A stretch of DNA of 64,000 nt from an uncultured Alphaproteobacteria bacterium (GTDB lineage Bacteria; Pseudomonadota; Alphaproteobacteria; CAAHEQ01; UBA3637), in assembly GCA_944391585.1 (NCBI GenBank), contig CALXUD010000001.1, positions 6,385 through 70,384 of the forward strand. The letters are read 5' to 3'. The notes under the pieces are model-generated. The model was not told the DNA's origin. It searched no databases and worked only from the letters and a program-made list of their open reading frames with translations. This document shows positions 38,586 through 57,458 of this stretch, in pieces; the first letter of the stretch is position 1; each line of letters starts with the position of its first letter. The position numbers and the translations under genes were made by a program.

Positions 38586-39323
38586 ATGAATAAATTATCT
38601 TCTTTCATCCTGTTAGTTGTTTTGTGTTTCGTTGTTACGAGAGTATCGGCGCAACATGCTACTTTTTCATATATGACATTTCCGAAATTCACAACACAGC
38701 AAGCAACGTCTGCGGTTCAAAAATCTATTCTGGAAGCTACTGAAAGCCTCTCAGTGGAACAGTTATATACCATGGGAGAGGAAGGTTTGGGGGATTCCGG
38801 AACGGCAACAATGGAATCGTCGGTAGAAGGGGTTACCTTGACAATGCCGGTTCCAACGTTTGTAAATGAAGATATCGGTTTAACAACAGATGTTTTAAAA
38901 GAACCGGAAAAATCTGTTGAAGTCATTAAGGAAAATGTGCAGATGCCGACGCAAGAACAAGCGATGAAAATGACGACGGAAGAATTAAACCAAAAAGCAA
39001 AAGCAATTGCCCAATTACAAACAGATGTTACACGAGATGCTTTAGCCGTAGCACTGGCAAATGTCCAAATTTCAGCTGAACAGGAAACTCGTCAAAAGGA
39101 ATTGGAAGAAACAATTGCCCGATCAACAACGTTGCGTGGAGATATTCAAGCGCGTTCCAAAGCGGCGTTAAGTGTTTTGGGAGAGGTCAATCGATTATTG
39201 GGTGTGAGTTCCAAATATTTGGGATTAGAAGCGGCGCATGCTTTGAGTTCAGCTCAATCCAGTTCAGCAGTTGGGGGGCAAACAGCTGAAACGGATACAC
39301 AAAAAACGGAGAACGCTTCATGA
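38586..39323 (+). CDS. Secreted alpha-helical/coiled-coil protein (246 aa), first gene of the T4SS-containing operon
   Basis: AGGAGG RBS. Signal peptide MNKLSSFILLVVLCFVVTRVSA. Q/A/E-rich helical body. Linked to the next gene by an ATGA overlap. Confidence 0.6.
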   Translation: MNKLSSFILLVVLCFVVTRVSAQHATFSYMTFPKFTTQQATSAVQKSILEATESLSVEQLYTMGEEGLGDSGTATMESSVEGVTLTMPVPTFVNEDIGLTTDVLKEPEKSVEVIKENVQMPTQEQAMKMTTEELNQKAKAIAQLQTDVTRDALAVALANVQISAEQETRQKELEETIARSTTLRGDIQARSKAALSVLGEVNRLLGVSSKYLGLEAAHALSSAQSSSAVGGQTAETDTQKTENAS

Positions 39324-40093
39324 CAATAAAAGGAATGAGCTTTTGTTTATTAGGAGGATTGTTTATTCCAATGGTGGCGTTTGCGTGGCCGATTAAAGAT
39401 TTACAAGGGTTTAAGTCTTTAACGATGGAAAGTGCAGCGCAAGAAGGTGTTAAATCTGTCCAAAATCAGTTGAATAATACAACAGATCAATTGTTAAAAA
39501 TAACCGGCGATTTAGGAAATTTGAATTTTTCTCCTCAATCTTTGTTTAGCACCAATAATAATCCATTGGTTGGAGATATAAAGCCGATTAGTATTTCTGT
39601 CCCATCTTTGGGACTGGATGGAGAAGCGGTTAAAAATACATTTGTAACGCAAGGGGTGTTAAATCAGACCACATTTATGCCAGTAGGAGCGGCGGCTCGT
39701 AATTTGACGACAGATCAAAAAGAAGCGATTTTAGCGCAACAGGAAAAGTTGTCTCAAAATTTGGCTGTTCAAGGTGTTGCAAAGGCAAATGTGGATAAGG
39801 CAAGTGCCGTTCAGATTACAGAAAAAGTTGATGCGGCAACAAAAATGATTAACGCGGCAAAAACCGAAAGAGAGGCAACGCAAGCCTATGCGCATACAAC
39901 AGCAGCATTAGCAACAAATTTTAGTTCTGTGGTGGATAAAGCGTCTGCTAATTTAGCAATTGTTTCATCCGTCCGTTTATCCAGTATTACACAAGTCGCT
40001 GAAATTGATCAAACAACAGAAGAGTCAACCCTGGCAGATGAATCTACGGCAGGGCAAGAAACTTCTTCCTCTTCGGAAACAACAGGAGGTTAA
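39320..40093 (+). CDS. Secreted protein (257 aa), T4SS-operon associated
   Basis: Signal peptide MSFCLLGGLFIPMVAFA. N/Q/A/T-rich body, S/T-rich tail. Confidence 0.55.
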   Translation: MTIKGMSFCLLGGLFIPMVAFAWPIKDLQGFKSLTMESAAQEGVKSVQNQLNNTTDQLLKITGDLGNLNFSPQSLFSTNNNPLVGDIKPISISVPSLGLDGEAVKNTFVTQGVLNQTTFMPVGAAARNLTTDQKEAILAQQEKLSQNLAVQGVAKANVDKASAVQITEKVDAATKMINAAKTEREATQAYAHTTAALATNFSSVVDKASANLAIVSSVRLSSITQVAEIDQTTEESTLADESTAGQETSSSSETTGG

Positions 40094-40094
40094 A

Positions 40095-40748
40095 ATGAAA
40101 CAACACTTAATTTTAACACTTATGTTGGTTTTTCCTGTGTCAGTTCAGGCGACAATGAACATCGGTGAAATTTCAACATCAATTGAATCGAATGCAGAGC
40201 AGTTGGTTGAAAAATCTCAAGAAAAACTAGCAGATCAAGCGGTTAATGTTTCATCGGATATTTCAGGCTCCCTTGTTTCTTCTGTCCGTTCAGCCGTTCA
40301 AATCCCGACACTTTCCAGTGTTGTAGATTCTGAAGAAGCGGTGGCATTGGTACCTTCTCCATTAGCATCAGAATTAGCAAAAGAAAATCCGTCTGTCGCT
40401 GACATTCAAACGTGGGTAAACAAACAAACATTACAAGATGAAACAACACCGGAAACATTGGCTGCAACGGTTGAGAATCAAAAAAATCAACTGTTTGTTT
40501 CAGCTTCCAAAGCATATGCGGTGGCGGTTGATAACCAAGTTAAATCCATTCAAGGACAGCAAGATGCGCGAGATGCAGAAAAAAAAGTGTCGGATGAAGA
40601 TGATTTTATCAGCATGAATAAACAAATGGCTTCAATGACAGCTCAAATGTCTCAGAAGTTAAATGCCATTGGTGGTTTATATGCACAGATGATTGAATTA
40701 AATTCAACCAGCGCATTGATTGGCAAAAATACAGAGGTGCAGGAATGA
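40095..40748 (+). CDS. Secreted protein (217 aa), T4SS-operon associated
   Basis: GGAGG RBS then ATG at 40095. Signal peptide MKQHLILTLMLVFPVSVQA. The track ORF 39960..40748 is a longer TTG-type extension. Confidence 0.55.
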   Translation: MKQHLILTLMLVFPVSVQATMNIGEISTSIESNAEQLVEKSQEKLADQAVNVSSDISGSLVSSVRSAVQIPTLSSVVDSEEAVALVPSPLASELAKENPSVADIQTWVNKQTLQDETTPETLAATVENQKNQLFVSASKAYAVAVDNQVKSIQGQQDARDAEKKVSDEDDFISMNKQMASMTAQMSQKLNAIGGLYAQMIELNSTSALIGKNTEVQE

Positions 40749-42763
40749 AACGGATTTTAAAATTAACGGCAGCTTTTTTTGTTTTGTCAATAGCTTTTCA
40801 AGCACAGGCTGTTTTGACCTTTGAAGCAAGCAAAACAACCTCTTTAACGACGCAAGCTAAAAATGTGGGTGATAAAGTGTCCAGTTATGTATATGAAACG
40901 GCGACCAGCGGATTGCAAGAAGGATCTTTATTGCTGGATAATACCATAAAATCCATTACGGATATTCCGGGTGATATTGTGGAACGGGCAACAGCAATTC
41001 CGGGGCAAGTTACAAAACAATTGACAAATATTCCGAATCAGGTTGCCAGTACACTGAATTCATCAATTAATCGCGTGACCAATATGCCTGGGCAAATGGT
41101 TAATCAGGCAACCGGCAGTGTTTCTTCTATGGCAAATCAAGTAACCAATATGCCGGGGAATACCGTTAATCAGATAACAAGCAGTGTAAATAGTTCGGTT
41201 AATCAGGTAACGAGTGCGCCGGGGAATTTTATGTCGCAAACAAATAGTATGATCAGCAGCACGGCAAATCAAACAATGAATATGCCGGGGAATGTTATTA
41301 ATCAAAGTGTTAGTAGCGTAAACAGTTCTTTAACTCAACTGGGAAATGCCCCGGGAAATGCCGTGAATCAAGCGGTTAGTGGTGTGAATAATGCATTTAG
41401 TTCTGCTACGAATTTACCGGGTAGTTTGACCAATTCTTTGAATTCAGGGATTTCCGGTTCGTTGTCTGAAATCAATAGTATGCCGACAACGGCGGTTAAT
41501 AAGTTGATGGATGGAAACATTTCAACAATGAATCCGTTGGAAAATATAGAATCCAGATTAACCTCATCGGGATTAAATATGAAAAATCAGGTAACCAGTT
41601 TGCCGGATCGGATGACATCCAGTTTAAATAATGCGGTTAGCGGTTTTACAAATTTGCCGGATAATTTACAATCCTCTGGCGATCGTCTTATTTCAAATAT
41701 TACGAGCACTCCGGATAACTTTGCGCGTCAAGGAGAAAATATCTTAAATAATATTACGAATACGCCGGATCGGATTACCTCTTCGGGTGAAAGTATGTTG
41801 AACAACATTACAAGTTCTCCGGATCGCTTGGCTTCTCAAGGGGAGAGTATTTTAAATAATGTAACCAGTACGCCGGATCGCTTATTAAGTCAGGGGCAAG
41901 GCACGATTACGAGTTTGCAAAATATGCCGGGCCAAACATTTTCTCAAATTACGGGAATGCCGGATTCTATTATGAATCAGACTGTGGGATCACTTGAAAA
42001 TACATTCAGTATGAATAATTTAATGGGTGGCTCCTTTTCCAATGCTTTTGGCGGATTAAATATGAACAATGTAGACAGTTATCCGACTCAGGCTTTTTCT
42101 TATATCCAAAATAATGCTACATCCAAAGCAAATTCATTGGCATCCAACAGTTTATCAAAATTTAAAAATTTGGGGAAAGAACAAGCTACAGCGGCGGCAG
42201 GAGCGGCAATCGGGGCTGTATGGAACAAAACAGCGGATTTAATAAATGGCTCAGATTCTGAGCCCGCTCAAAGTGCATCGCAAGGGAAAACGGAAACGGG
42301 TTCAGTTGTTGCACAGACATCCCAAGAGGCTGAACAAGCAGTTGCACAGGCACAAGCTGTTGCGGCAGAACAAGAAAAGTTAAACAAACTGAAAGAAGAG
42401 GTGCGACAAAATTTCTTTTTTGACGGGGAACCGACAACAGAAGAAAGAGAAGCGTTGTTAGCTACTCGGTCAGATAATTTTTCGGATATTGTGGCTAAAT
42501 CGGCTACAATGGCAGAAGGTATGCGGGAAAGTATTGTATCGGATGCGGCAACAACAACGGCAACTCCTATCAGTGGCGCCAGCGTTAAAGAAGATATCAA
42601 TATGAATACTGAAATTATGAAAAAATTAGCGCGTCAGTTGGTGGCTGAAATAGCCGTTCAAAATCAACTGTTTGAATTGGAAGTCGCCGGTGTCATGCAA
42701 TCATTGGATGTAAAACGGCTAGAAATGCCAACTTTACAGACGGAAATAGAAACGGGGGCTTAA
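40745..42763 (+). CDS. Secreted Ser/Asn/Thr-rich tandem-repeat protein (672 aa)
   Basis: Signal peptide (LSIAFQAQA). About seven 22-aa repeats 'TNMPGxxVNQxxSSVNSxxNQV' then about seven 18-aa repeats 'TSTPDRLxSQGESILNNI'. C-terminal coiled coil. Confidence 0.65.
   Translation: MKRILKLTAAFFVLSIAFQAQAVLTFEASKTTSLTTQAKNVGDKVSSYVYETATSGLQEGSLLLDNTIKSITDIPGDIVERATAIPGQVTKQLTNIPNQVASTLNSSINRVTNMPGQMVNQATGSVSSMANQVTNMPGNTVNQITSSVNSSVNQVTSAPGNFMSQTNSMISSTANQTMNMPGNVINQSVSSVNSSLTQLGNAPGNAVNQAVSGVNNAFSSATNLPGSLTNSLNSGISGSLSEINSMPTTAVNKLMDGNISTMNPLENIESRLTSSGLNMKNQVTSLPDRMTSSLNNAVSGFTNLPDNLQSSGDRLISNITSTPDNFARQGENILNNITNTPDRITSSGESMLNNITSSPDRLASQGESILNNVTSTPDRLLSQGQGTITSLQNMPGQTFSQITGMPDSIMNQTVGSLENTFSMNNLMGGSFSNAFGGLNMNNVDSYPTQAFSYIQNNATSKANSLASNSLSKFKNLGKEQATAAAGAAIGAVWNKTADLINGSDSEPAQSASQGKTETGSVVAQTSQEAEQAVAQAQAVAAEQEKLNKLKEEVRQNFFFDGEPTTEEREALLATRSDNFSDIVAKSATMAEGMRESIVSDAATTTATPISGASVKEDINMNTEIMKKLARQLVAEIAVQNQLFELEVAGVMQSLDVKRLEMPTLQTEIETGA
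40955..41995 (+). repeat. In-frame tandem coding repeats (periods 66 and 54 nt) inside the 672-aa secreted protein
   Basis: Recurring aatatgccggg.../acgccggatcg... units directly visible in the DNA. Confidence 0.6.
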
Positions 42764-43573
42764 ATGAAAAAGATATTTTTCAAAATAGTCATGGTGGTTG
42801 GATTGTTAGGCTTTTCTTGGAAAGCGGATGCATGTTTATGCGGCCCCAATACGTGTCCGGCTTGTTGGGATCAAATTATTGAAGGCTTTCCGGTTGAAGA
42901 TCCGACTTCATTAGCTCAGCAGGGGGCAAAGTTGGGAAATGATGTGTCTTCGGCTGTTGCATCCGAAGTGCAAGTGCAGGTAAAACAAAAAATCAATAAT
43001 GCAAAATCTTCTGTGGGAACTGATTTATCTTCTTATATGGTGCCGGACACCTCTTTAAATCAAGCATTCAATACGGGAGAAACATTTACGGCAAATTTAT
43101 CCAGTGATTTGTTGCCTCAATCTGCTTCTTTAACACCGGAAAAAGATGAAAATGCACAAATTGCAACGGCTAAAGGTGAGAACAGTATTGATGAGATTAT
43201 GATTCAGGTTGAAAAAAGTCAATTAAGCTCAAATGCGACATTAGCCGGAGAAATTTATGAAACCAATAAGCGGGCTTATATGCGTCAGGAAAATGTTGTG
43301 GATGCATATGCGAAGGTGTTGTTAATGCGGCAGAATTTGGATGAATTGGTGGAACAAATGGATAAAGAGATAGATAAAACGGCTCAACCGGGAGAAGATG
43401 TAAATGCCGCTTTGCGTTCCAATATGGCGGTTAATAGCATGGTTAGTCAGTTGCTTAGCTTATATCAACAAATCATAGCGGCACGGTTGCAATTTGCAGC
43501 ATTCCAAAAACTGGAGCAAGTAGGGACAATTCAACGTCCGGTTATTCAGTCGGCTTTGGTAGAAAGTAAATGA
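42764..43573 (+). CDS. Secreted protein with Cys-rich N-terminal motif (269 aa)
   Basis: Signal peptide, then 'CLCGPNTCPACW' immediately after the cleavage region. Helical C-terminus. Confidence 0.55.
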   Translation: MKKIFFKIVMVVGLLGFSWKADACLCGPNTCPACWDQIIEGFPVEDPTSLAQQGAKLGNDVSSAVASEVQVQVKQKINNAKSSVGTDLSSYMVPDTSLNQAFNTGETFTANLSSDLLPQSASLTPEKDENAQIATAKGENSIDEIMIQVEKSQLSSNATLAGEIYETNKRAYMRQENVVDAYAKVLLMRQNLDELVEQMDKEIDKTAQPGEDVNAALRSNMAVNSMVSQLLSLYQQIIAARLQFAAFQKLEQVGTIQRPVIQSALVESK

Positions 43574-43584
43574 GAGGAGAAAAA

Positions 43585-45747
43585 ATGAAAACGTTATCCA
43601 TTTCATTGATTGCCTTTTTGGCCGGATGTTTATATTGTTCCGCGCCGGAAGCTCAAGTGAGTTATTCAAAAGTGGAATTTGAGGCACCGAATTTGGTTCA
43701 AGTTGCTGAGCAAACGCGCTCAAATGTGACGGTGATGTGGGCAATGCGGGTTCATAATTTGATTTTTCAACTAAAAGAGTATCAGAAAGCGCGTGAACAA
43801 TTACTGGATGCGCAAGAACGATATGAGCTACAGCAACTACGTTATAAATCTATGATGTTATGTAATGTTAACAATTTAAAGCCGTATTTTAAAGATCCTC
43901 AAAGTGCTTGGTTAAAGGTGTTGGATAAATATGATCGGGATGAAAAAAAATTAGGAATTCAAATTAATACAACAGATGCATCATTAAGTGCTTCGGCTGA
44001 ATTGATTGCTAACACGCCGGGGTTAACTCCGTTATTGTCGTCCTCATCAGAGTCAGATGATTTATCTGAAACCTTTTTAATGTGGTCGTTAGGAAATGGG
44101 ATTTTACATGATGTTTATGCCAATCAGGATGATTGGGGAAATCGGGTGGATAAATCTTTCCCATTAACGGTGGATCAGCAATATATTTATGATGAGCAAG
44201 ATTGGTATGGCAAATATAAAAAAATCAATCAGGCAGCTTGTTGTTTAAATGATTGCGGTATTGGCTATAAGGGAGCACCGGATACCCGTGAAAAATTGTC
44301 TGATGGCACAACATATGATTATCATGGTGATTATAAATACCATGAAAACGGAAAAGTAAAAACAGCGCATGATACTTATATGGCCGCGATTAGAGCGGTT
44401 CATCGCAGAGGGTGTTCCAAACGTTTAACAACAGAAATGTTTACCGAGCCTAAACAGCCGCCACGCCCGTTACCGCCGGTTAATGAAACAATAGTGTTTG
44501 ATGCAGACTCTTATTCTCTTCAACGTCCCCCATTTTCAGAACAGCGCATTTATGAAGGTAATCAAATGAATTTAACGCAGAGTGCTTGGCCGGCTCCGTG
44601 GAAAACATTTATTGAATCAGATTTTAAAACCTATAATGCCAATGGGGCAATGCCCAGATATTTTAAATATAAATCAATTGTTCCGATTGATTTAGAAAGT
44701 CGGACGGCAGAACAATTACAGGCATTTTATGATGCTCAAAACAATCGCTTAAATGCATACCAGGTGTTGAAGAAAGAATTGGATGATGCTAAAAAGATTT
44801 TGGATACTTCCAAAGTTAATTACATTGAAGCAATGCAAAATTTAAGTGCCAGCGTTGCAGATGTGAATGCAGCTATTTCTGATGCGAATCAAAGCAGTTC
44901 TCAATTTCAAGTGTCTGTTTTGACATTGCCGGAAAATTTCAAATTGTTAGAGCAATTTGATTTAGATAATATCAGTACAGATTCGGATTTAGAAAAAACA
45001 CTGGATAAAATTTTGGTTCAAAATAAAAAAGTTTATTATCAAGAAACGCCGGAGAGTGATTTAAAAAGATGGCCGGATATGTTTAATGTTTTGCTAAATA
45101 GTACGCCTGCCGGTAATTTGGTTATTGAGCCTGATAGTGAGGGAATTGGGCGTGTTTATTTAAAACAAACACAAACAATGCCGCTACAAGATTTTGATTT
45201 ATTGACAGATGCCCAAGTCAGCAAAATCACGGATAATTTTAAACAAGTGAAAAAAGATTTCATCGCAAAAGCGTTGGGTGAATTGGCCGCAGAATTACGT
45301 CAGGAACAGGCAGCCTCTTCAGAAGTGCAAGCTATTAAACAAGCGGGAGATGCTGAATTAGCCGAAACAACAGATGTAAAATCTCAAAAAAGCCTCTTCC
45401 AACAAAGGTTGGAACAAATGGTTGCTAATTTGAATGGGATAAATACGGACAGTTTTGTTAATTCCGGTTTTACAAATCGGGAAGTATCGGATAGTTCGAT
45501 GTGGCCGGATGTGATGACGGATTCATCTAAAGAAAATTTGGCAACAGTTTTAGAAGCATTGCAAGCAGATGAAAACGCCGAATTGTTCTTCACGAACACA
45601 AATGCACGGCGTGCCAGTGATTTGAAAAAAGAAAATGCGGCTGTTCAAGCGTTAATTGATGAATGGGAATCTGAAATGAAATCAGTCACGGTTGAAGGAA
45701 CGGCTGCCATTGATGCTAATTGTTTAAATTTGGGGATTTATAAATGA
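43585..45747 (+). CDS. Large lipoprotein (~720 aa), T4SS-operon associated
   Basis: GAGGAG RBS. Lipobox MKTLSISLIAFLAGC. No NTP-binding motif. Coiled-coil segments. Its stop overlaps the virB8-like start. Confidence 0.6.
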   Translation: MKTLSISLIAFLAGCLYCSAPEAQVSYSKVEFEAPNLVQVAEQTRSNVTVMWAMRVHNLIFQLKEYQKAREQLLDAQERYELQQLRYKSMMLCNVNNLKPYFKDPQSAWLKVLDKYDRDEKKLGIQINTTDASLSASAELIANTPGLTPLLSSSSESDDLSETFLMWSLGNGILHDVYANQDDWGNRVDKSFPLTVDQQYIYDEQDWYGKYKKINQAACCLNDCGIGYKGAPDTREKLSDGTTYDYHGDYKYHENGKVKTAHDTYMAAIRAVHRRGCSKRLTTEMFTEPKQPPRPLPPVNETIVFDADSYSLQRPPFSEQRIYEGNQMNLTQSAWPAPWKTFIESDFKTYNANGAMPRYFKYKSIVPIDLESRTAEQLQAFYDAQNNRLNAYQVLKKELDDAKKILDTSKVNYIEAMQNLSASVADVNAAISDANQSSSQFQVSVLTLPENFKLLEQFDLDNISTDSDLEKTLDKILVQNKKVYYQETPESDLKRWPDMFNVLLNSTPAGNLVIEPDSEGIGRVYLKQTQTMPLQDFDLLTDAQVSKITDNFKQVKKDFIAKALGELAAELRQEQAASSEVQAIKQAGDAELAETTDVKSQKSLFQQRLEQMVANLNGINTDSFVNSGFTNREVSDSSMWPDVMTDSSKENLATVLEALQADENAELFFTNTNARRASDLKKENAAVQALIDEWESEMKSVTVEGTAAIDANCLNLGIYK

Positions 45748-46400
45748 AATTAAAAAGAACCATTTCGGATTTGCATCAACGTTCTGTGGCAAAAGGGGGA
45801 GCTTTTGTTGCCAAACTATGGATGGGGCTTGCGCTTTTGTCTATGATGTTAAACTTTTTCATTGTTTTAACATTATGGCAAATTTCGCCGAAATTAGAAA
45901 TCATTTCACAAATTGTTTTTCAAGACGCGTTGACTTCTCGTCAAGGTGTGATTGCTGAACCATTTGATGCCAATATGATGGATAAAGATAAAATCAACGA
46001 AATGCTCATTCGGTATTATTTATCTAATCGCTACAGTGTTTTCCCTGATTATGATGAAATGGCGCATCGATGGGGCCCTAACGGAATTTTAGATCGTTTA
46101 TCGACAGATAACGTGCATTATGCTTTTGCACAAGATGCTTATGGACAATTAGAAGAAATCGATAAAAATCCGCAAACCAGCAGTGTCAGTATTCGCAAGA
46201 TGTCACGGCTGGATAATACATGGACAATCGAACTGGAAGTTTTTACGTTTGATCAGCGGACAGGACAGGTATCCAGTCGCGTTTATGATGTTGTTTTGGA
46301 AACAGCCGTTGATCCGGCTTATGCCTTTTTTAACATTGATTTCATTAATCCGTATGGATTACAGATTGTTGATTTCAGACAAACGCAAAAAAAACAATAA
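45744..46400 (+). CDS. VirB8/DotI-like T4SS inner-membrane protein, paralogue 1
   Basis: Cytoplasmic N-terminus, single TM (LWMGLALLSMMLNFFIVLTLW). Periplasmic domain with 'MLIRYYLSNRYSV' (VirB8 'RYV..RE.Y'-like) and C-terminal 'NPYGLQIVDFR' (VirB8 NPxG motif). Confidence 0.65.
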   Translation: MKLKRTISDLHQRSVAKGGAFVAKLWMGLALLSMMLNFFIVLTLWQISPKLEIISQIVFQDALTSRQGVIAEPFDANMMDKDKINEMLIRYYLSNRYSVFPDYDEMAHRWGPNGILDRLSTDNVHYAFAQDAYGQLEEIDKNPQTSSVSIRKMSRLDNTWTIELEVFTFDQRTGQVSSRVYDVVLETAVDPAYAFFNIDFINPYGLQIVDFRQTQKKQ

Positions 46401-46480
46401 AATCATCATTTTTGTGTTGGATAATTTTTTTTTATGTGCTAGATTAACCCTAGGTTTACTAACTTAAGAAAGGGTGTTGC

Positions 46481-46657
46481 ATGAAAAAATATCTATTTTT
46501 ATTAGGAATTGCCGGCATTTTTGCATTGGTTGCTTGCGGATCCGTTTATGAAAAAGAAACGGTGGGGATTGGTCCGGATTATTCCGAATTGAAAAAATCA
46601 CCGTGTGCTTGTGTGAAATTGGATAATGTACCGGAATTACCCGAATGGTTTTCCTAA
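46481..46657 (+). CDS. Small VirB7-like lipoprotein (58 aa); not in the supplied ORF track
   Basis: AGAAAGGG RBS. MKKYLFLLGIAGIFALVAC has a lipobox (LVAC). ~40-aa mature peptide. It sits between the two virB8-like genes, as rvhB7 does in Rickettsiales. Confidence 0.5.
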   Translation: MKKYLFLLGIAGIFALVACGSVYEKETVGIGPDYSELKKSPCACVKLDNVPELPEWFS

Positions 46658-49155: not shown

Positions 49156-49200
49156 AAAAAGTTTGTATTGAATAGTTTGTTAGAAGATAAGGCAAATAAA

Positions 49201-52200
49201 ATGGCAGAAAATAGAAATTATACCAGTATGTCCGAACAATATGTCAAAAAGAGTAATCGTCGATTACTCATTTTTGGCATTGTGCTTTTTTTGATTTTTG
49301 CATTGGCATTATTTGCCTTATCCGGTCGCAATCAACAAACGGAAGATTTAACGCCGATTGATTATAACACGGACGATTTTGAACGATTAAACAATCCAGA
49401 TGCTTCTTTAACAACGTTTACGCGCGGTAGTGCAACTTTGAAAGTAACACCGGATGTCGTCAATATGGATAATGTCGTATTAGGTTCGAATGTAGAATCA
49501 GTTATCACGTTAACAGCAAACAATGCGCCGATTTTCTTTTTGGGAGCGGAGTTAGCCGAACAACAACAAGATGGGTTTAAATTAGACACCAATTGTGTCG
49601 TAGATAAAGAAATGGCTGTGGGGGAAACATGCAATATCAAAGTATTATGGAATCCGGTTTCTTTATTACAATTGCAAAATAATTTAACGATTACATGGCG
49701 AGAAAATAACCCAACCGTGTTCAGAAATGAAAAAACAGTGGTTCAAATTCGTGCCAATTCAACGGATTCAAAAGATTGTGTGATTTGTGAAAATGTGTCG
49801 GCAGAAGCTAATAAAAAACCGCGGATGGCGGCAGGATTGGATGGTACTTTATATGAAGTTGATGATGATGGATATGTTACGATTGACGGTAAGCGCTATA
49901 AGGTGACGGAAAACGGGTTAATTGTTGATGAAAATGGTAATGTTTTGGGAATTGTTCAACCGGAGCGGTTGCCTTTGGGATTGGATCACAAAGTTTTGGG
50001 AACAATTTCGCAAACGCAGGACGTGATTGATGCCTCCGGCAACAAATTGGGGCGTTTATTGGGCGATGGCACGATTGTGGATCCGAATTTAACGGTCATT
50101 GGTGCGGCTGTACCGGTAGTGTCTGTTATGGATGATAATGGAACAATTGTTGGAAAGTTGTTGGCAGATGGATCTGTGGTTAATGCGGCTAACTCCACGA
50201 TCGGACGGCCGTTGGTAGATGGCTCTGTTATTGATTTACAAGGCAATCATTTAGGATACTTACGCCCATGGGGATTGGTTGTTGATTTTGGTGGATTTGT
50301 TTTGGGGGGCATTACACCAGATGGTGTTGTTGTGAATTCAAAACAACAAAGAGTGGCTGTTGTAAAACCAAATGGATTGGCATTGAATGCATCTAATGAA
50401 TTAGTGGGTGGTGTGGTGCCAACGGGCGTGGCTGTGGGTGCCAGTTGTCAGGCGGTTGGTTCTGTGCAGTTAAATGGACAAGTCAAAGATTCATTTGAAC
50501 AGGTTGTTGGTCGGACATTGCCGGATGGTAGTGTGGTCGATGAACGCGGAGATGAATTGGGCGCTGTTGTAGCTCAAGGATTAGTGATTAACGAAAAAGG
50601 AGTTATTTTAGGGTTTGTTAATTCCGAAGGAAAAGCAGTTGATGCTAAAGGCTCAATGATCGGTTGTGTGAATCCGGATGGTTCCGTGATGGCTGGAAAA
50701 CGCTCGGTTGGTGCAGTGATGGCTAAAGGAACGGTTGTCGGATATGGATGTGAAGTGATTGGTTCTGTTTATCCGAACGGTATTGTGGTAAATGATAAAC
50801 AAGAAGGGGTTGCCCGCGTGTTGGCAGATAAGTATGTTAAAAATGCCAACAACCGAATTGTTGGGGTTGTGATTCCGCGTGGGACGGCAATTGGTGAAGG
50901 GTGTCGTTTGTTGGGATTGATTAATTTAAACGGTCGTGTTGTTTCCACAGAAGGTCAGGATGTTGGCTGTGTGAACATTGAGTTAAATGTATTGGATAAT
51001 GCTGGAAAAGTCATTGGAGCAGTCAATTACAAAGGACAGGTAACAGATGACAATGGAAAAATTATTGGTCGAATTCGGATGGATGGAAAAGTCATTGACA
51101 CCAAAGGGGTTGTCATTGGTTGTGTGAATCCGGACGGTTCGGTTGTGGATTTAAAAGGCGCTCCGTTGGGACAAGTTGTCGGCGTCAGCAATGGAACATC
51201 TCGTCAATCCGGTGTGGTGTTAGATGCAGCCGGCAATCCAACCGGATACACAATCGTCGGAAATCAAGTTTATGACCAAAATGGCAACTTGGTTGGCGAA
51301 TTGCAAGAAAACGGTTGGGTCGTTGATGCTAATGGTCAAATTATCGGCGTGGTCCCGCCTGATGGGGTTATTTATTCTCCAGACGGATTGATTTTAGGTC
51401 GTTATTCTCGTCAAACAGGGGTTGCTGTGGATTTGGAAGGAAATCGTTTCGCGCGAATTTTACCGGATATGACGGCTGTCAGCGGTGAAACATCTGACAT
51501 TATTGGGGCTTTAATTGCAGATAAAACAAGCTTCATGAAGTTGGATGGTTCTTATTTAGGAACAATGCGTATTGACGGTATGATGTTAGATGCCTCCAAT
51601 AATTTAATCGGCGCTATTCGGGCAGACGGAACGGTGGTGGATAAAACAGGTCAAATCATCGGGACGCGCATTTTAACAGGTTCCGTGTTAGGTGTTTTGG
51701 GGGGTGTTATTGGAACAGCTGAGGCGGATGGTTCAGTTATATCCATGGCGAAAACAAAAATCGGCAAAATGTTAGGAAATGGTTTGGCTGTTTCTGAAGA
51801 CGGAAAAGTTATTGGTGCTCTTTTCCCTGAAATTTCAGTTGCCATTGGATCGGATGGAACGATTTTGGGCGGTTTAACAACACAAGGAAAAGTGATTGAT
51901 AAAAATGCACGTGTGATTGGAACAGTTTCGCCGTTTGGTTTTATTTTTGATAGTGCGGGAAAATTAACAGGTCGTTTAGTGCGGGTTGGGGCTTTTGTAG
52001 ATGCTCAAAACCAAACAATCGGCTGGCTTTCCTTTAAAGGAGAGTTAGAAGGAAAAGATCAACGTTCTCGGGCTAAAGTATTGAGCAACGGAGTTGCAAT
52101 TGACAACAATAATTTTGTGATTGGTCAACTTGTGCCGCGGGGTGTTGCGGTAGATGAAAACGGCAATTTTGTCGGCTCTGTTTCCGTGAATGGATTGGTT

Positions 52201-55200
52201 TTAGGAAAATCAACAGAAGTGTTGGGATCCACAAAAGCATCTCCTTATTTCTATGATGCCAGCGGTACATTGGCCGGAAGTATCATACATCCGGGATTGG
52301 CACTCTCTTTGAATGGGGCGGTTTTGGGTTGGACAAGTTATACGGGACAAGTCATCAATGCAAAAGGAGAAAATGTCGGATTTATCGGTTTGGATGGTCG
52401 CGTCTTTAACAGCTCTAAACAATTGATTGGTACCTTTGTGGCTTTTGACACATTAACAGGTGGCGATGAGCAAGATAGCTTTGGGGTTTTGGGGGCTGAT
52501 GGAAACATTGTGGATGGAAAAGGGCAAAAAATCGGCTCAGTTCTTTCCACACAATTTGCCGGTCAAGAAGGAAAAATCACAACGAGATTATTCCGTTCAT
52601 CTGATTTAATTACTAACTTTGTGAATGGTCAGTTGATGGGGCAGATTTTGCCGGGTGGCAGTGTTTTATATGCAAATGATGATAAAATTTTGGGAACAAT
52701 TGGCACTAATGGATTAGCGGCAAATTTAACGAAAAAGGTGATGGGTGGTGTGGCCCCGGTTGGTGTGCCGCAACGGATTGGCTTATCAGTAATGGGGCAA
52801 TCACTTGTTTCGGGGGGTATTCTCAATAATGGGGCTTTTGTGGCTCAAGCAATGCCGAATACGGCCGCCTATGACTCCAAAGCGCAAGTGGTTGGTAATG
52901 TGGCTGTACCGGATCTCTTTATCGGTCGGGAAGGGGCGGTTATCGGATCCAGTTCCGGAACAGCAACAATCATTTCAAGAGATGGAAAAAAGTTGGCATC
53001 TTATATGCCGTTTGGCTCTGCTTTGACAACGGATAATTTGTGGGCCGGGGGGGTAATGCCTTTGGGAACGGTTGTGAATGATGATGCGTATACCATTGGT
53101 GTAGTGGCTTCTGACGGGGCTGTTGTGGATCGGATGGATGACGTGATTGGTCGTGTGATGACAGACGGAATTGTTGCAGGTATTTCTGAACGCTCCAGTT
53201 ATGCAACAATGCCTTATATCGGTGGTTTAGTTAAACAAGGATTGCCGGTTGGTTTTAAAGACGGAATCTTAGGACGCACAACTATTGCCGGTGATGTGAT
53301 TGATGCTGCGGATAAAAAAGTTTATCGCTTATTAGATGATGGGACTGTTTTGGGTGGTGATATGCCGTTAGCCGGGGTAGTTGTTTCTATGAATCCGGTG
53401 ATTGCGCACAACGGGAATGTATTAGGTGTGCCATCGGGTGATGGAACTGTTATTTCTGAAACAGGTGAGGAAGTTGGTACGATTGCTACTAATGGAACGG
53501 CTAAAAAAGGTCGGATGAAAATCTTGGGTGCTGTGGTGCCGGAAAGATTGGTTGTGAATGATTGTAAGGTCGTTGGACAAACGGCTTTCAATGGTCAGGT
53601 CATCAATGGTCGCGGTGATGTTGTGGGACGGATTTTGGTAGATAAGTGGGCCCAAAATATGCGTGGCGAAAGAATTGGCCGGATTTCTCGCAATGGGCTT
53701 GTTTTATCCCCAACGGGAGATTATTTGGGACGGACAATGCCGGATTCAACGGTTGTCGACTTAAAAGGAATTAACATGGGATGTGCCCGAAATGACGGTT
53801 CTGTTGTAGATAATGCGGGTAATGTGATTGGGGCTGTTGTTGAGCGGGGCGCCATTTTAGATGAGACGGGCAATTTAATCGGCCGAGTAAAACATGACGG
53901 TTCGGTTGTGGACAGAGATGGTAATGTGATTGGTAAAGTGTTGGGAGATGGAAAAGGCACCGTTGTGGATTTGGATGATAACGTAATTGGTCGAGTTGTT
54001 TCGCCGGATGAAGAATTGTTATTCAACGAAAATGGTGTTGTTGAAGGAACAATCAGTCGTGGTGGTGAGGTAAAAGACGCCGAAGGCAACACATTATTTA
54101 CGGTTTTACCAAATGAAGACATCGTGGATAAAAATGGGGAAATAATTGGTAAATTATCTGAAAACGGAGATTTTTCAGATGGTATTTTGCGCGATAAAGA
54201 CGGCAATATTATCGGAATGATTTCCGGATGCGATGTAACAGGACCAAAAGGGACAAAAATCGGATCTATTATGCCGGACGGATCCATTATGGATTTGAAT
54301 GGCGGTGTATTTGCGGTTATTGGGTCTGACAGTAAATTGTATGATGCTAAAGGAAATGAAATGGGAACGTTGTCCGGCATTGACGTCAATTTAGATAAAT
54401 GTGGCGTAAAACTGGATAAAGAGACCCTCCGTAGCGGGAAAGGCGCTGCCGGTTCAACAGGTGTATCCGGTCGGCGTATCTTTATCGGTAATAAAGTTTA
54501 TGATGTTTCCGAAGCCGGATCTATCATTGATTCCGAAGGGACAATCATTGGTTATATGGGTGAAGATGGTCGGCCGTATGGTTTGAACAATAAGCCGTTC
54601 AGTGTTGGTTCAGATGGAAGTGTTTCTACTCGGACTCGGCCGAATTTAGATAAACAGCTGACAGTAAATGAGGAACAATTAACACAAATGCAGCAATTGT
54701 TGGCACAACGCCGAGCCAGTATGAAAGCCGCTCGCGGAACAGCTATTCAACCGAGTGGGCGAATTTTGGCTAAAGCCAAGAAGAAACAAGACGAAGATTG
54801 GGGAGAACCCAGAATCGTATCATCATGGCCGGTAGATATGTCGCGTATGATTTTAAAAGATAAGGCAATTCCGGCAGTGTTGGTACATTCTCTAGATTCT
54901 CGATTCTCGGATGTCCCGGCAACAGCCATTGTGGAACGTCATATTTACTCTGAATCCGGACGTAATATCATTATTCCAGCCGGTAGTCGTTTGATTGGCA
55001 GAATGTCCAGTAGTGATGGAGATGGGACAGTGGCAAAAGTCAATATTTCTTGGGAGCGACTTATTCGTCCTGATGGCGGGGCCTTTAAGTTCTCAGCAAC
55101 CTCCGGCGATGCTCAAGGTCGTGGTGGTGTAGCCGCTTATTTGGATAATGAGCTGATGAAAAAATACGGTCAACCGGTTATGGTTTCTGCGGTACGTTCT

Positions 55201-55764
55201 ATGATCACCTATTTGATCCAAACAGATGGAACAACGACAACGAATGCCGATTCCGGAACGGTTGCACAATCCGGCAGAGATCAAGCGGCTGCTGATGCAC
55301 GTCAAACATTTATGACTGACATGCAACAGGTCTTTGATGATATTTTGACTGAAGCAACGGGGGTTCCGCCGGTTTTGTTTGTCCCATCAGGAACGCGGTT
55401 AACGGTTTTTGCAAACGAGGATCTATGGTTGCGTGCGCCGGTAGAAGATGAGAAAGAATATGAAGAGCAATTTGGAACTGATACTAAACAAGCTCAAACG
55501 GCGAAAACAGATTCTTGGGTGAATAAACATCCTGTTCCTCAAGGGGCAGTTCAACCGCCGGTGGAACAATACTATGAACCCAATGAACCGGTTTATGTGG
55601 ATGAAACATATTTAGAAGAACCATTATATGATGGAGAAAATGTTGATATGGAGCAAGAGGTTGTTTCTGAAACATCTTCAAACACAGAGGAAACGAATCC
55701 GTTGGAGAATAGAGTGGTAGAACCTGTTTTGCCAAAAAATAATAGTATGGAACAATTGTTTTAG
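49201..55764 (+). CDS. Giant VirB10/TrbI-family T4SS protein (~2190 aa) with N-terminal TM anchor, ~1600-aa central repeat region and C-terminal VirB10 domain (CagY/DotG-like architecture)
   Basis: ATG at 49201 after a TAAGG RBS; the track start at 49168 is a TTG. TM helix (LLIFGIVLFLIFALALFALSG). C-terminal 'VLVHSLDSRFSDVPATAIVERHIYSESGRNIIIPAGSRLIGRMSSS...VNISWERLIRPDGGAFKFSATSGDAQGRGGVAAYLDNELMKKYG' matches the conserved VirB10/TrbI C-terminal domain. Confidence 0.8.
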   Translation: MAENRNYTSMSEQYVKKSNRRLLIFGIVLFLIFALALFALSGRNQQTEDLTPIDYNTDDFERLNNPDASLTTFTRGSATLKVTPDVVNMDNVVLGSNVESVITLTANNAPIFFLGAELAEQQQDGFKLDTNCVVDKEMAVGETCNIKVLWNPVSLLQLQNNLTITWRENNPTVFRNEKTVVQIRANSTDSKDCVICENVSAEANKKPRMAAGLDGTLYEVDDDGYVTIDGKRYKVTENGLIVDENGNVLGIVQPERLPLGLDHKVLGTISQTQDVIDASGNKLGRLLGDGTIVDPNLTVIGAAVPVVSVMDDNGTIVGKLLADGSVVNAANSTIGRPLVDGSVIDLQGNHLGYLRPWGLVVDFGGFVLGGITPDGVVVNSKQQRVAVVKPNGLALNASNELVGGVVPTGVAVGASCQAVGSVQLNGQVKDSFEQVVGRTLPDGSVVDERGDELGAVVAQGLVINEKGVILGFVNSEGKAVDAKGSMIGCVNPDGSVMAGKRSVGAVMAKGTVVGYGCEVIGSVYPNGIVVNDKQEGVARVLADKYVKNANNRIVGVVIPRGTAIGEGCRLLGLINLNGRVVSTEGQDVGCVNIELNVLDNAGKVIGAVNYKGQVTDDNGKIIGRIRMDGKVIDTKGVVIGCVNPDGSVVDLKGAPLGQVVGVSNGTSRQSGVVLDAAGNPTGYTIVGNQVYDQNGNLVGELQENGWVVDANGQIIGVVPPDGVIYSPDGLILGRYSRQTGVAVDLEGNRFARILPDMTAVSGETSDIIGALIADKTSFMKLDGSYLGTMRIDGMMLDASNNLIGAIRADGTVVDKTGQIIGTRILTGSVLGVLGGVIGTAEADGSVISMAKTKIGKMLGNGLAVSEDGKVIGALFPEISVAIGSDGTILGGLTTQGKVIDKNARVIGTVSPFGFIFDSAGKLTGRLVRVGAFVDAQNQTIGWLSFKGELEGKDQRSRAKVLSNGVAIDNNNFVIGQLVPRGVAVDENGNFVGSVSVNGLVLGKSTEVLGSTKASPYFYDASGTLAGSIIHPGLALSLNGAVLGWTSYTGQVINAKGENVGFIGLDGRVFNSSKQLIGTFVAFDTLTGGDEQDSFGVLGADGNIVDGKGQKIGSVLSTQFAGQEGKITTRLFRSSDLITNFVNGQLMGQILPGGSVLYANDDKILGTIGTNGLAANLTKKVMGGVAPVGVPQRIGLSVMGQSLVSGGILNNGAFVAQAMPNTAAYDSKAQVVGNVAVPDLFIGREGAVIGSSSGTATIISRDGKKLASYMPFGSALTTDNLWAGGVMPLGTVVNDDAYTIGVVASDGAVVDRMDDVIGRVMTDGIVAGISERSSYATMPYIGGLVKQGLPVGFKDGILGRTTIAGDVIDAADKKVYRLLDDGTVLGGDMPLAGVVVSMNPVIAHNGNVLGVPSGDGTVISETGEEVGTIATNGTAKKGRMKILGAVVPERLVVNDCKVVGQTAFNGQVINGRGDVVGRILVDKWAQNMRGERIGRISRNGLVLSPTGDYLGRTMPDSTVVDLKGINMGCARNDGSVVDNAGNVIGAVVERGAILDETGNLIGRVKHDGSVVDRDGNVIGKVLGDGKGTVVDLDDNVIGRVVSPDEELLFNENGVVEGTISRGGEVKDAEGNTLFTVLPNEDIVDKNGEIIGKLSENGDFSDGILRDKDGNIIGMISGCDVTGPKGTKIGSIMPDGSIMDLNGGVFAVIGSDSKLYDAKGNEMGTLSGIDVNLDKCGVKLDKETLRSGKGAAGSTGVSGRRIFIGNKVYDVSEAGSIIDSEGTIIGYMGEDGRPYGLNNKPFSVGSDGSVSTRTRPNLDKQLTVNEEQLTQMQQLLAQRRASMKAARGTAIQPSGRILAKAKKKQDEDWGEPRIVSSWPVDMSRMILKDKAIPAVLVHSLDSRFSDVPATAIVERHIYSESGRNIIIPAGSRLIGRMSSSDGDGTVAKVNISWERLIRPDGGAFKFSATSGDAQGRGGVAAYLDNELMKKYGQPVMVSAVRSMITYLIQTDGTTTTNADSGTVAQSGRDQAAADARQTFMTDMQQVFDDILTEATGVPPVLFVPSGTRLTVFANEDLWLRAPVEDEKEYEEQFGTDTKQAQTAKTDSWVNKHPVPQGAVQPPVEQYYEPNEPVYVDETYLEEPLYDGENVDMEQEVVSETSSNTEETNPLENRVVEPVLPKNNSMEQLF
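49850..54650 (+). repeat. Array of about 80 degenerate ~19-20-aa coding repeats, consensus 'DGSVVDxxGxxIGxV', within the VirB10 homologue
   Basis: Periodic G/V/D/I pattern through ~1600 aa (e.g. 'LADGSVVNAANSTIGRPLVDGSVIDLQGNHLGYL', 'PDGSVVDERGDELGAVVAQGLVINEKGVILGFV'). Units are diverged at the DNA level. Confidence 0.75.
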
Positions 55765-55779
55765 TATGGAAAAAGGAAA

Positions 55780-56766
55780 ATGGCTTTAGATAATGAAGAA
55801 ACATATAAGGTATTGAATTCTGCTCTACGGCCGCTTTCTTATTGGTATAGTCAAGAAAACATTGAGGAAATTGCGGTAAATAATCCGGGAGGCATTTGGT
55901 TGCGTATGCGGGGAAAACATGCTTATCCGTGGCATTATTTTGAAGATCCGAAATTAACGCGCGAATATTTAAATGATATTTTATATATTATTTCTAATAC
56001 ATATGATTATTCCTTTGATCCGTTGGGAGGGACGCCGGTTGTATATGCAACATTACCGGGAGGTCATCGGTTTACGGGAATCAGTGGTCGGAATGTGATG
56101 TATGATAACAATGATTTAACCGGCGGTGTGGCGATGACACTGCGTGTTTATTCAGAAGACATCGGCATTGGAATGGAAGATTTTAGATTGGCTAAAGGGG
56201 AACGGTTACGGCCATTGAATAAGTTGACCAATGTGGAAGATCCGGATGATCCCTATGAGCGGCTATTGTTGTCTATTAAACGGGGGGATCATATCCTCAT
56301 CAGTGGAGCAACGGCAACGGGTAAAACAACTTTCTTGAACAATATGATTCGTTTATTAGATGAGCATAAGCGCATTTTGACAATTGAAGATACACGCGAA
56401 TTGATTGTGCCACAGAAAAATCGGGTGCATATTGTGATTCCGCGTACAGAATCCACCAACGCATTTGATTATAAACGTGTAATAGACTTGGCTGTTCGGT
56501 TTACTCCGGATTGCATTATTGGTGGAGAAATTTCTACCTCTAATGCCGGTGCTTTATGGGAATTAATGGGGTCCGGACATGATAACTGTTTTGCAACGAT
56601 TCATGCGGCCAGCCCGGATGATGCATATAAAGCATTTGTGAATCGGATTGTGCACTCTTATCCCAATACGGATCGCCAAAAAACATTGCAAGAAATGAAA
56701 GATCTCTTACGTGTAGTGCAAATTAATCGAGACGGCAACATTCGCGCTGTTACGGAAATCACATAA
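55780..56766 (+). CDS. virB11: VirB11-family T4SS ATPase
   Basis: Walker A 'ISGATATGKTTFLN', 'RILTIEDTRELIV' Asp box, 'TSNAGALWELMGSGHDNCFATIHAASP' His box. 328 aa. Confidence 0.85.
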   Translation: MALDNEETYKVLNSALRPLSYWYSQENIEEIAVNNPGGIWLRMRGKHAYPWHYFEDPKLTREYLNDILYIISNTYDYSFDPLGGTPVVYATLPGGHRFTGISGRNVMYDNNDLTGGVAMTLRVYSEDIGIGMEDFRLAKGERLRPLNKLTNVEDPDDPYERLLLSIKRGDHILISGATATGKTTFLNNMIRLLDEHKRILTIEDTRELIVPQKNRVHIVIPRTESTNAFDYKRVIDLAVRFTPDCIIGGEISTSNAGALWELMGSGHDNCFATIHAASPDDAYKAFVNRIVHSYPNTDRQKTLQEMKDLLRVVQINRDGNIRAVTEIT

Positions 56767-57458
56767 TGATTAAAATTGGTATCTTGGGAGGAATGGGGCC
56801 TCAGGCATCAGCACTGCTCTATCAAAAAATTATTTGGCAAGCCGAACATTGTTTCCATGCTCAAAAAAATGCAGATTATCCTTATTTTTGCTTGATAAAT
56901 TTACCTGTCCCTGACTTAATTGAAAATCAAAATGATGAGAAAAAAACAGTTAAAATGGCTTATGAAGCTCTTTATTCTTTAAAAAATGGAGGATACACGC
57001 ACTTTGCAATTGCATGTAATACAATGCATTTATATGCAAAAGAAATAAATCAAACACTTAATTTAAATTTTATCTCTATGGTTGAAGCTGTTGTTAATTT
57101 GTGTGTAAGGGAAGAATATCAAGTTGTTTCCATCTTGGGATCTAAAACAACGTTAAAAACGGGATTATATGAAAAAGCATTATTAGATAAAGGGATTAAG
57201 GTTAATAAGCCTGATCTAGAAAATCAACATAAATTAGCAAAAATTATTTTAAAGTTAATTGCCGGACGATTAAGCAAAAATGATTTAAAAATTTTTAAAA
57301 AAATAGTGAAAGAAGAACAACAAAAAGGAAGTCAAAAAATTATTTTAGGGTGTACAGAATTACCTTTGATTCTACCATTTATTTCAAATAAAAAAGATTT
57401 TATAGATTCCTTAGATGTTTTGGCATATCAAATTAACTCTGTTTTTTATAAAAGATAG
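56766..57458 (+). CDS. Asp/Glu/hydantoin-racemase-family protein (aspartate racemase-like), 1-nt overlap with the virB11 stop
   Basis: 'IGILGGMGPQAS' N-terminal motif and second-domain 'IILGCTELPLI' with catalytic Cys, as in the aspartate racemase family. Confidence 0.7.
   Translation: MIKIGILGGMGPQASALLYQKIIWQAEHCFHAQKNADYPYFCLINLPVPDLIENQNDEKKTVKMAYEALYSLKNGGYTHFAIACNTMHLYAKEINQTLNLNFISMVEAVVNLCVREEYQVVSILGSKTTLKTGLYEKALLDKGIKVNKPDLENQHKLAKIILKLIAGRLSKNDLKIFKKIVKEEQQKGSQKIILGCTELPLILPFISNKKDFIDSLDVLAYQINSVFYKR

Follow-up and report, generated by a model that had tools for sequence, protein, structure and literature searches.

In this work, we focus on a block of genes found between positions 38586 and 57458, on the + strand, of a 64,000-nucleotide stretch of DNA (the window) from an uncultured alphaproteobacterium. 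The block comprises 14 consecutive co-directional genes, which exist at the coordinates given by an initial annotation of the same DNA, and sequence comparison confirms that it encodes the core of a type IV secretion system (T4SS) of the P-type (VirB/VirD4-like), in the order VirB8-VirB7-VirB8-VirB9-VirB10-VirB11. Profile searches support the assignments of VirB8, VirB9, VirB10 and VirB11 that were made in that annotation (Pfam VirB8, CagX, TrbI and T2SSE), and VirB7 is supported by its lipobox and its motif. The core is preceded by six other genes, termed here g1 to g6, and followed by a racemase gene. VirB7, the two VirB8, VirB9, VirB10 and VirB11 are conserved across at least 80 species genomes.

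The core proteins and their elaborations

The core starts with virB8a (45744..46400, +), which encodes a divergent VirB8 paralogue of 218 residues. This protein matches the Pfam VirB8 family (E 7e-4), its family profile finds the solved VirB8, TrwG and TraE structures (best E 1.7e-8), and it retains the C-terminal NPxGF motif. It is also related by BLASTP (1e-10) to the product of virB8b (46675..47361, +), a conserved VirB8 orthologue of 228 residues that matches the same Pfam family at 5.5e-15 and whose family profile reaches the solved VirB8 structures of the PDB with a best E of 5.9e-10. Between the two lies virB7 (46481..46657, +), which encodes a 58-residue lipoprotein with the lipobox LVAC, and this arrangement, in which two VirB8 copies flank VirB7, is present in 66 related loci. 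The motif ELK[KRQM]SPCAC was found in 85 of the 85 VirB7 homologues recovered, and it agrees with the [KI]KSP plus cysteine motif that has been reported for the VirB7 of Rickettsia and for ComB7 (Gillespie et al., PMC2653234).

The next gene, virB9 (47440..49155, +), encodes a protein of 571 residues that matches CagX (7e-13) and contains a Gly/Ala/Ser-rich insert, a linker of about 170 residues and a C-terminal SPOR domain (1e-4). The SPOR match (PF05036) scores 23.0 bits for a cut-off of 21 and spans profile positions 33-76 only. The C-terminal 50 residues and the SPOR region are largely invariant in 15 diverse homologues, in which Cys349 is invariant, and PF05036 is precomputed on about 40% of the VirB9 homologues listed. 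In total, 1,223 database homologues were found; the 120 that are listed are 57-99% identical and of similar length (an architecture of 530-620 residues), and the few with a source name come from metagenome-assembled genomes (MAGs) of uncultured Alphaproteobacteria or Pseudomonadota. At the other end of the core, virB11 (55780..56766, +) encodes a VirB11-type ATPase of 328 residues (T2SSE, 2.7e-20), to which the Brucella VirB11 structure 2gza aligns over nearly the full length (residues 12-289, E 2e-15). This exact protein is found on many human-associated metagenome contigs, where its neighbours are unchanged.

The largest protein of the core is VirB10 (49201..55764, +), which matches TrbI (1.5e-33), Bflower_2 (5e-81), Bflower and DUF3659. 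Its start is most likely the ATG at 49201, which is the one called in public assemblies and gives 2,187 residues, rather than the TTG at 49168, which would give 2,198. The initial annotation had put forward a giant VirB10 of about 2190 residues along with the SPOR domain on VirB9, and both of these elaborations hold. The protein is organized as a transmembrane helix (residues 22-40), a domain of about 150 residues, a succession of hairpin repeats from about residue 220 to 1800, a short coiled segment and the TrbI barrel, whose match corresponds to residues 1895-2088 of the open reading frame (ORF) that begins at the TTG. The repeat region covers about 1,580-1,600 residues of Gly/Val/Asp-rich beta-hairpins with a period of 16-17 residues (glycine accounts for 14-17% of residues 200-1800), and it matches Bflower_2 with 268 bits in 13 stretches and Bflower with 62.9 bits (PF21785/PF21784, clan CL0395). 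The beta-flower fold is defined by repeated beta-hairpins with a [DNEQ]xxG motif at their tip (PMC10584680), and the VirB10 repeats can be assigned to this family on their sequence. As for the barrel, its best match in the PDB is ComB10 of Helicobacter pylori (6e-17), and the ComB10, VirB10 and CagY structures are recovered with values from 6e-17 to 3e-7. VirB10 exceeds 2,000 residues in 77 loci, where it ranges from 2,015 to 2,538.

At the DNA level, the virB10 repeats are 60-80% identical to each other, so they are old and constitute no substrate for recombination of the cagY kind; recombining repeats like those of cagY were ruled out on this basis. Two side observations concern this gene. 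In one rumen MAG (locus L027, 11865-18427), virB10 is split into two ORFs of 589 and 1,578 residues, which reflects either a frameshift or an assembly error. In the window, an antisense ORF of 222 codons (53721-54389, -) runs inside virB10; this ORF, whose product is Pro/Ser/Thr-rich, most likely arises from the Gly/Val/Asp repeat codons and is not a gene.

The proteins encoded upstream of the core

None of the window's g1 to g6 proteins has a match to a curated family in Pfam or NCBIfam. When they were searched as single proteins and as family profiles against Pfam, NCBIfam and the PDB sequences, nothing consistent was obtained except PF07996 for the g4 family. PF07996 is the VirB5/TrbJ family, whose members are Sec-exported helical proteins of about 220-270 residues with genes placed between virB4 and virB6/B7. 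We compared the upstream families (those of g1 to g6, and others from related loci such as f13 and f15) by hhalign, using alignments made from syntenic genes, together with the VirB5 and the X protein of the plasmid conjugation systems that are described below.

The gene g4 (40745..42763, +) encodes a protein of 672 residues, and its C-terminal domain (residues 536-651) aligns with three plasmid VirB5 proteins of 250-270 residues (hhalign 95.4%, E 1.9e-8). Direct matches to PF07996 are found in 3 of the 52 members of the g4 family (best E 2.5e-6) and in 2 of the 128 proteins of the g1, g2 and g3 slots and the other small upstream families (best E 4.5e-5); the plasmid VirB5 protein of Erythrobacter passes the Pfam cut-off for this family. 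From these comparisons we consider, with moderate confidence, that g4 is a divergent VirB5. Its size is due to a Ser/Asn/Thr-rich insertion of about 450 residues made of 18- and 22-residue repeats, which correspond to degenerate DNA repeats of 54 and 66 nucleotides; the orthologues of other species usually have 230-300 residues.

Among the others, the 245-residue signal-peptide protein g1 (38586..39323, +) is a probable VirB5-like paralogue, as it aligns with the C-terminal domain of g4 (86.7%) and, through its residues 112-220, with the plasmid VirB5 (88.6%). The signal-peptide protein g5 (42764..43573, +; 269 residues) is the probable counterpart of the plasmid X protein (85.1%), which itself aligns with the plasmid VirB5 at 96.4%; g5 reaches the latter at 65.2%. 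For g3 (40095..40748, +), a signal-peptide protein of 217 residues, a VirB5-like origin is suggested by weaker evidence, namely 54.9% against the plasmid VirB5, 79.6% between g3 and g5 and 67% between g1 and g3. Finally, g2 (39320..40093, +), with a signal peptide and 257 residues, is a possible VirB5-like paralogue that gives 0.6% against the plasmid VirB5 and is linked to the others only through g1 (69%). The families f13 and f15 align with g5 (98.7%) and g3 (97.7%), respectively. The negative controls stayed at or below 1% when the upstream families were compared to VirB8 and VirB9, and at 0.1-0.2% in the comparison with the plasmid VirB5 and X. Some similarity can also be seen at the predicted mature N-termini, which read WPIKD in g2 and FPVED in g5, while the plasmid VirB5 proteins start with (I/V)P(V/T)xD; in g5, the FPVED follows a cysteine-rich N-terminus, which parallels the CPIID of the Microvirga X protein. 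The members of the g5 family that we looked up are annotated as hypothetical by NCBI. Thus, the initial annotation, according to which the six proteins were unrelated to each other and had no counterpart in VirB operons, has to be revised: the g4 family matches PF07996, and g1, g2, g3 and g5, which are related at 65-89% to g4 and to one another, are in our moderately confident opinion VirB5-like paralogues, g5 corresponding to the plasmid X. These upstream paralogues are ancient and very divergent, with 12-25% identity.

The novelty claimed for the upstream proteins therefore stands for g6 only (43570..45747, +), an orphan of 725 residues with a signal peptide. Its occurrence is limited to the clade, no other of the six accessory proteins is as well conserved, and its gene always lies directly before virB8a. 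An exhaustive search of 1.84 billion representative proteins confined it to 57 clusters, and a word-indexed search with a 63-sequence alignment returned five close relatives only. Three identities were considered for g6 and set aside: a divergent VirB9a, as in an rvh-like system (Rickettsiales vir homologue), was ruled out by hhalign (0.3%), as was the plasmid X (0.2%), and a peptidoglycan hydrolase, to which weak VanY and DUF922 matches in a few members pointed, is supported neither by the structural model nor by the fold searches.

Structural models were obtained for g5 and g6. The g6 model is reasonably confident (predicted local distance difference test, pLDDT, 77.6; predicted template modelling score, pTM, 0.78), it shows long helices and small beta elements, and it has no specific relative among the solved structures; with moderate confidence, g6 can be described as a predicted clade-specific helical protein. 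The AlphaFold2 model of g5 is poor (pLDDT 57.5) and is confident only in a C-terminal helical hairpin (residues 160-252).

Divergence is faster in all six upstream proteins than in the conserved part of the core and in the two housekeeping genes taken for comparison. Indeed, g1 to g6 are 67-79% identical to their orthologues of the same genus, while VirB7, VirB8b, VirB9 and VirB10 reach 87-100%, VirB8a 78-83%, and the products of ksgA and folD 83-94%. The fastest-evolving slot is that of g2 (67-73%).

Genomic setting and distribution of the locus

Scanning one genome per species gave 123 confirmed matches, of which 80 loci were kept; they come from MAGs of human, Hadza, ruminant and rabbit gut. 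The synteny was then compared over 82 loci. In Group A (about 45 species, VirB9 at least 54% identical to that of the window), folD is usually followed by five to seven signal-peptide genes, and these by the core, B8a-B7-B8b-B9-B10-B11. Group B (VirB9 49-55%) occupies a different chromosomal site, with six signal-peptide genes before the core (f17, f12, f15, g4, f13, g6) and a gene for a dUTPase and an SH3 gene after it. In Group C (VirB9 44-48%), the core stands alone, with housekeeping genes before it. Across the clade, VirB7 is 41-100% and VirB11 65-82% identical. The locus adjoins folD in many related species genomes, and such a fixed site argues against a recent mobile insertion. The initial annotation saw in the block an integral part of the lineage and not a recent mobile insert, a view that is thus supported, the block being a chromosomal trait found throughout the lineage.

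Several loci depart from these patterns. In Group B, the first accessory gene, f17, encodes about 500-1,050 residues, and the dUTPase-like gene and a signal-peptide gene with an SH3_4 domain take the place of the racemase (L062, 19184-20171, and other loci of the group). In two loci (L036 and L041), virB9 is preceded neither by virB7 and the two virB8 copies nor by the accessory array, and in three others (L046, L048 and L051) virB8a and the array are missing. In parts of the clade, the accessory module is thus either dispensable or encoded elsewhere.

In the window, the block is flanked by folD upstream and, on the other side, by a type-IV-pilin-like gene and then by rplS-trmD-rimM-rpsP-ffh on the opposite strand. 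The placement between folD and the rplS operon that was initially proposed is thus right for the folD flank, but the pilin-like gene (57535-58131, +; N-terminal methylation motif and weak Pfam match) intervenes between the racemase gene and rplS. This pilin-like gene is hypervariable: among contigs that share 100% identical VirB11 and racemase, its product varies from 64 to 100% in identity and from 153 to 198 residues in length. The racemase gene itself (56766..57458, +) encodes an Asp/Glu racemase (Asp_Glu_race, 1.5e-31), and its TAATG overlap with virB11 is real. The initial annotation counted it as a part of the system. It is found after virB11 in the window's own genus only, with no homologue at that position in the 80 loci of other species (L010-L089), and it is therefore a neighbour and no conserved component.

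The junctions of the block measure, in order, -4, +1, -4, 0, -4, -4, 80, 17, 78, 45, 15 and -1 nucleotides. Such tight spacing had been taken as translational coupling and as the mark of a dedicated operon, but it is common across the window: 75% of the junctions inside the block are of 17 nucleotides or less, against 60% of the other co-directional junctions. As this spacing is typical of the whole window, it is on its own weak evidence for one dedicated operon. The co-directional run begins well upstream of folD, and the sole strong terminator-like hairpin, which is bidirectional, lies after the pilin-like gene, at 58134-58165. A promoter scan did no better than chance. A tyrosine recombinase gene is found 6 kb upstream of the block (31294-32202), and it is presumably of the housekeeping XerC/D type.

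As for the other components of a T4SS, Pfam searches found no VirB2, VirB3, VirB4, VirB6 or VirD4 in the 64-kb window, and the VirB2, VirB3 and VirB4 of Microvirga had no tblastn match either there or among 169 related loci. The VirB4 ATPase is a universal component of T4SSs. VirD4 (Pfam T4SS-DNA_transf, 2.4e-58) was found about 6 kb from the core in two Group C loci (L082 and L088) and on a metagenome contig (L093), and relatives that are 58-100% identical occur on 219 metagenome contigs. Five VirD4 loci were read. In four of them (L115, L122, L153 and L166), VirD4 lies in a similar setting, in which acidic proteins, a 160-residue transmembrane protein and a Trp-rich membrane protein of 390-460 residues precede it, and three of these four have clear housekeeping flanks; the fifth (L097) did not lend itself to such a reading. 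Related genomes thus carry at least one further chromosomal islet, that of VirD4, which recalls the archipelago described for rvh. In one of these loci (L115, 10001-13284), VirD4 is followed by an ORF of 204 codons and by an ORF with a SUKH/SMI1-KNR4-like match (E 6.5e-5, under the Pfam cut-off); the two may form a toxin-immunity pair, and the SUKH-like gene is a weak hint that such a pair would be interbacterial.

Elsewhere in the window, a 1,080-residue protein is encoded at 32199-35441 (+), and its orthologue in related contigs carries the Pfam families LptF_LptG and LptD according to precomputed annotation; if so, parts of lipopolysaccharide transport from the inner and the outer membrane would be joined here in an unusual fusion. 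At 3166-7314 (-), a protein of 1,382 residues combines GT2, GT8 and GT4 glycosyltransferase domains. Two ORFs have no Pfam family at E of 1e-5 or below, one of 501 codons (24174-25679, -) and one of 347 codons (30267-31310, +).

Relation to known systems and proposed function

The closest cultured relatives were sought by tblastn of VirB11 against plasmids, and three of them stand out: Microvirga sp. VF16 pMVF16-3 (42%), Erythrobacter aureus YH-07 (39%) and Sphingosinicella sp. BN140058 p1 (39%), while ordinary VirB11 proteins are at about 30%. Their plasmid module contains MobA/MobL, a DnaB-like helicase, VirB2, VirB3, VirB4, a VirB5 of 250-270 residues, the X protein of 420-450 residues, VirB7, VirB8, VirB9, VirB10, the ATPase and VirD4. 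Compared with the window, the Microvirga plasmid is at 42% for VirB11, 38% for the VirB10 barrel, 32% for VirB9 and 29% for VirB8b (E 2.5e-23), and a 58-residue ORF before its virB8 is 43% identical to the window's VirB7, of equal length, and shares the KKSPCAC motif. In addition, the plasmid order B5-X-B7-B8-B9-B10-B11 is colinear with the window's g4 and g5 followed, further on, by B7-B8b-B9-B10-B11. The plasmid systems differ in being single operons with a relaxase, VirB2, VirB3, VirB4 and VirD4, and in having one VirB8, no g6 and no further VirB5-like copies. Their VirB10 (529-590 residues) has no beta-flower match and their VirB9 no SPOR match, so both elaborations arose in or before the gut clade, and so did the second VirB8.

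The initial annotation had called the core rvh-like. Its order is indeed that of islet C of Rickettsia, B9a-B8a-B7-B8b-B9b-B10-B11-D4, without B9a and D4 (PMC2653234). The two systems share the VirB8 duplication around VirB7, with one conserved and one divergent copy, followed by B9-B10-B11, as well as the [KI]KSP-Cys motif of VirB7, the dispersal of the genes in chromosomal islets (in the gut clade, VirD4 stands apart from the core) and a vertical inheritance as a lineage trait. The published hallmarks of rvh are the duplication of B8, B9 and B4, a multicopy B6 and the absence of a VirB5 analogue (PMC11077975). Three of them could be assessed at the locus: VirB8 is duplicated as in rvh, but a VirB5-like family is present, and even amplified, and VirB9 is single. 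Moreover, VirB11 is followed by the racemase or by other unrelated genes where rvh has VirD4, and the hosts are extracellular gut bacteria instead of Rickettsiales. We also take the rvh VirB10 to be of ordinary size and the rvh VirB9 to be devoid of SPOR. It is thus improbable that the locus is a member of the rvh family, i.e., the machine of Rickettsia extended to another order, all the more so as VirB11, VirB10, VirB9 and VirB7 have their nearest annotated relatives in plasmid conjugation systems of Hyphomicrobiales and Sphingomonadales. The locus is outside rvh as published; it may either share its origin with rvh or have evolved in parallel from a Microvirga-type conjugation operon.

Two other systems offer analogies. 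In the Cag system of H. pylori, the VirB10 homologue also reaches about 2,000 residues by internal repeats (CagY, 1,927 residues), the VirB9 homologue is enlarged, and extra secreted VirB5-like or accessory proteins (CagL, CagI and CagH) are encoded beside the core. The repeats are unrelated: those of cagY are near-identical and recombine, whereas here they are beta-flower hairpins encoded by DNA copies that are 60-80% identical, and no homology to Cag-specific components was detected. The Trw system of Bartonella has tandem VirB5 variants that are thought to mediate adhesion to target cells (PMC2610397). The likeness to the amplified VirB5 homologue of Trw is again an analogy, as Trw also amplifies VirB2, VirB6 and VirB7, has no coupling protein and derives recently from the R388 plasmid system. 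The paralogues described here are old and have diverged strongly, and the clade does have a VirD4.

This leads us to the reading that we consider fairly probable: the block would encode the envelope-spanning core and the surface parts of a chromosomal, vertically inherited P-type T4SS, devoted to contact-dependent secretion or adhesion and scattered over several islets. The system would have originated from an operon of the conjugative-plasmid type, B2-B3-B4-B5-X-B7-B8-B9-B10-B11-D4, after which the B5 region would have been amplified, B8 duplicated, and the genes of the ATPase and of the inner-membrane components moved to other islets. VirB7, VirB9 and VirB10 would form the outer-membrane cap, which the SPOR domain of VirB9 may tie to the peptidoglycan sacculus. 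As the repeats of VirB10 lie between its inner-membrane helix and its barrel, they would form a periplasmic collar, with a role like that of CagY in the Cag machine; with about 1,600 residues per chain and 14 copies, as in other VirB10 rings, this multi-megadalton collar would exceed 2 megadaltons. The Sec-exported VirB5-like proteins and g6 would be displayed at the tip or surface, where they could contact a target cell, be it the host epithelium or a bacterium. Such contact would drive the divergence of the displayed proteins, and their rapid divergence fits a selection of this kind. Substrate transfer would need VirD4 and VirB4 from other islets.

An adhesion-only machine comparable to the Bartonella Trw, which would display VirB5-like variants and translocate nothing, is in our view unlikely, although the tandem array of fast-evolving VirB5-like genes, a locus with no coupling protein, no relaxase and no effector that could be recognized, and the Trw precedent itself (PMC2610397) all speak for it. 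What argues against it is that related genomes have a conserved chromosomal VirD4, which in three loci is found on the same stretch of DNA as the core, that the clade has kept VirB11 (65-82% identity), and that no amplification of VirB2 was seen. A system that handles DNA, either a domesticated conjugation apparatus or a ComB-like T4SS for DNA uptake in competence, is about as improbable as membership in the rvh family. The nearest cultured relatives are indeed conjugative plasmid modules with a MobA/MobL relaxase, the VirB10 barrel is most similar to ComB10 of H. pylori (6e-17), and the VirB7 motif is common to ComB7; yet the gut loci have no relaxase, oriT-associated or replication gene near the core, and the fixed chromosomal site beside folD in many species disfavours a mobile element. 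ComB systems are devoid of VirB11 and VirD4. Here, unlike in ComB, VirB11 is present, and VirD4 is present in the clade. Finally, we hardly believe that the locus is what is left of an integrated conjugative element in decay and now without a function: VirB2, VirB3, VirB4 and VirB6 are not in the locus, and some loci lack virB8a or the accessory array or have a split virB10 (L027), but the frames are intact in 77 species, including a virB10 of 6.6 kb, and decay would not preserve VirB7 and VirB11 at their identities of 41-100% and 65-82%.

The scattered secretion or adhesion system that we favour has to be set against several points. None of VirB4, VirB3, VirB2 and VirB6 came to light in the window, or next to the core or to VirD4 in the loci examined, so that the completeness of the machine is assumed, and the VirD4 that was found comes from related genomes. 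The window's own g4 has no Pfam match, its assignment to VirB5 coming from profile-profile comparison and from the matches of other members of its family, and the low-confidence model of g5 yielded only generic coiled coils in the fold search, with no VirB5 or TraC match. Co-transcription is suggested solely by the spacing of the genes and the absence of terminator-like hairpins between them.

On balance, we are dealing with an unusual variant of a known machine and no new kind of system, in which the supposedly novel upstream proteins are mostly VirB5 derivatives. A bolder proposal is that the locus represents an undescribed, order-wide and vertically inherited T4SS lineage of gut commensal Alphaproteobacteria, in which a VirB10 of about 2,200 residues with about 95 beta-hairpins and a SPOR-bearing VirB9 would build a giant wall-anchored collar, and in which a diversifying set of VirB5-derived adhesins would be presented, with g6 as a new helical component, to host or rival cells. 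By its B8-B7-B8 core and its islets, this lineage would be either a sister of rvh or an independent parallel to it. We see this proposal as tentative, and we lean slightly against it. Within a limited coverage of the literature, no paper describing the locus was found, nor anything relevant that connects RF32 or CAG-239 with type IV secretion. Should the proposal be true, it would bear on the origin of rvh from conjugation systems. The finding of B8-B7-B8 outside Rickettsiales, together with plasmid relatives, suggests a route by which scattered and duplicated T4SSs, regarded as anomalous, could have evolved. The name of the beta-flower fold dates only from 2023 and no function is known for it, and the VirB10 repeats place this fold in a defined cellular context. 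As for the VirB5-like array, which is amplified and evolves fast, it is a candidate determinant of host or target specificity.

The clade, which we take to belong to the order RF32, consists of bacteria that are common, and uncultured, in the gut communities of humans and livestock. In the ruminant MAG catalogue from which several of the genomes come, the Alphaproteobacteria of this order have reduced genomes of about 1.6 Mb (PMC8199421). For genomes this small to keep about 19 kb of secretion genes, 6.6 kb of which is virB10, implies that the interaction they serve, be it with the host or with neighbouring microbes, is an important one.

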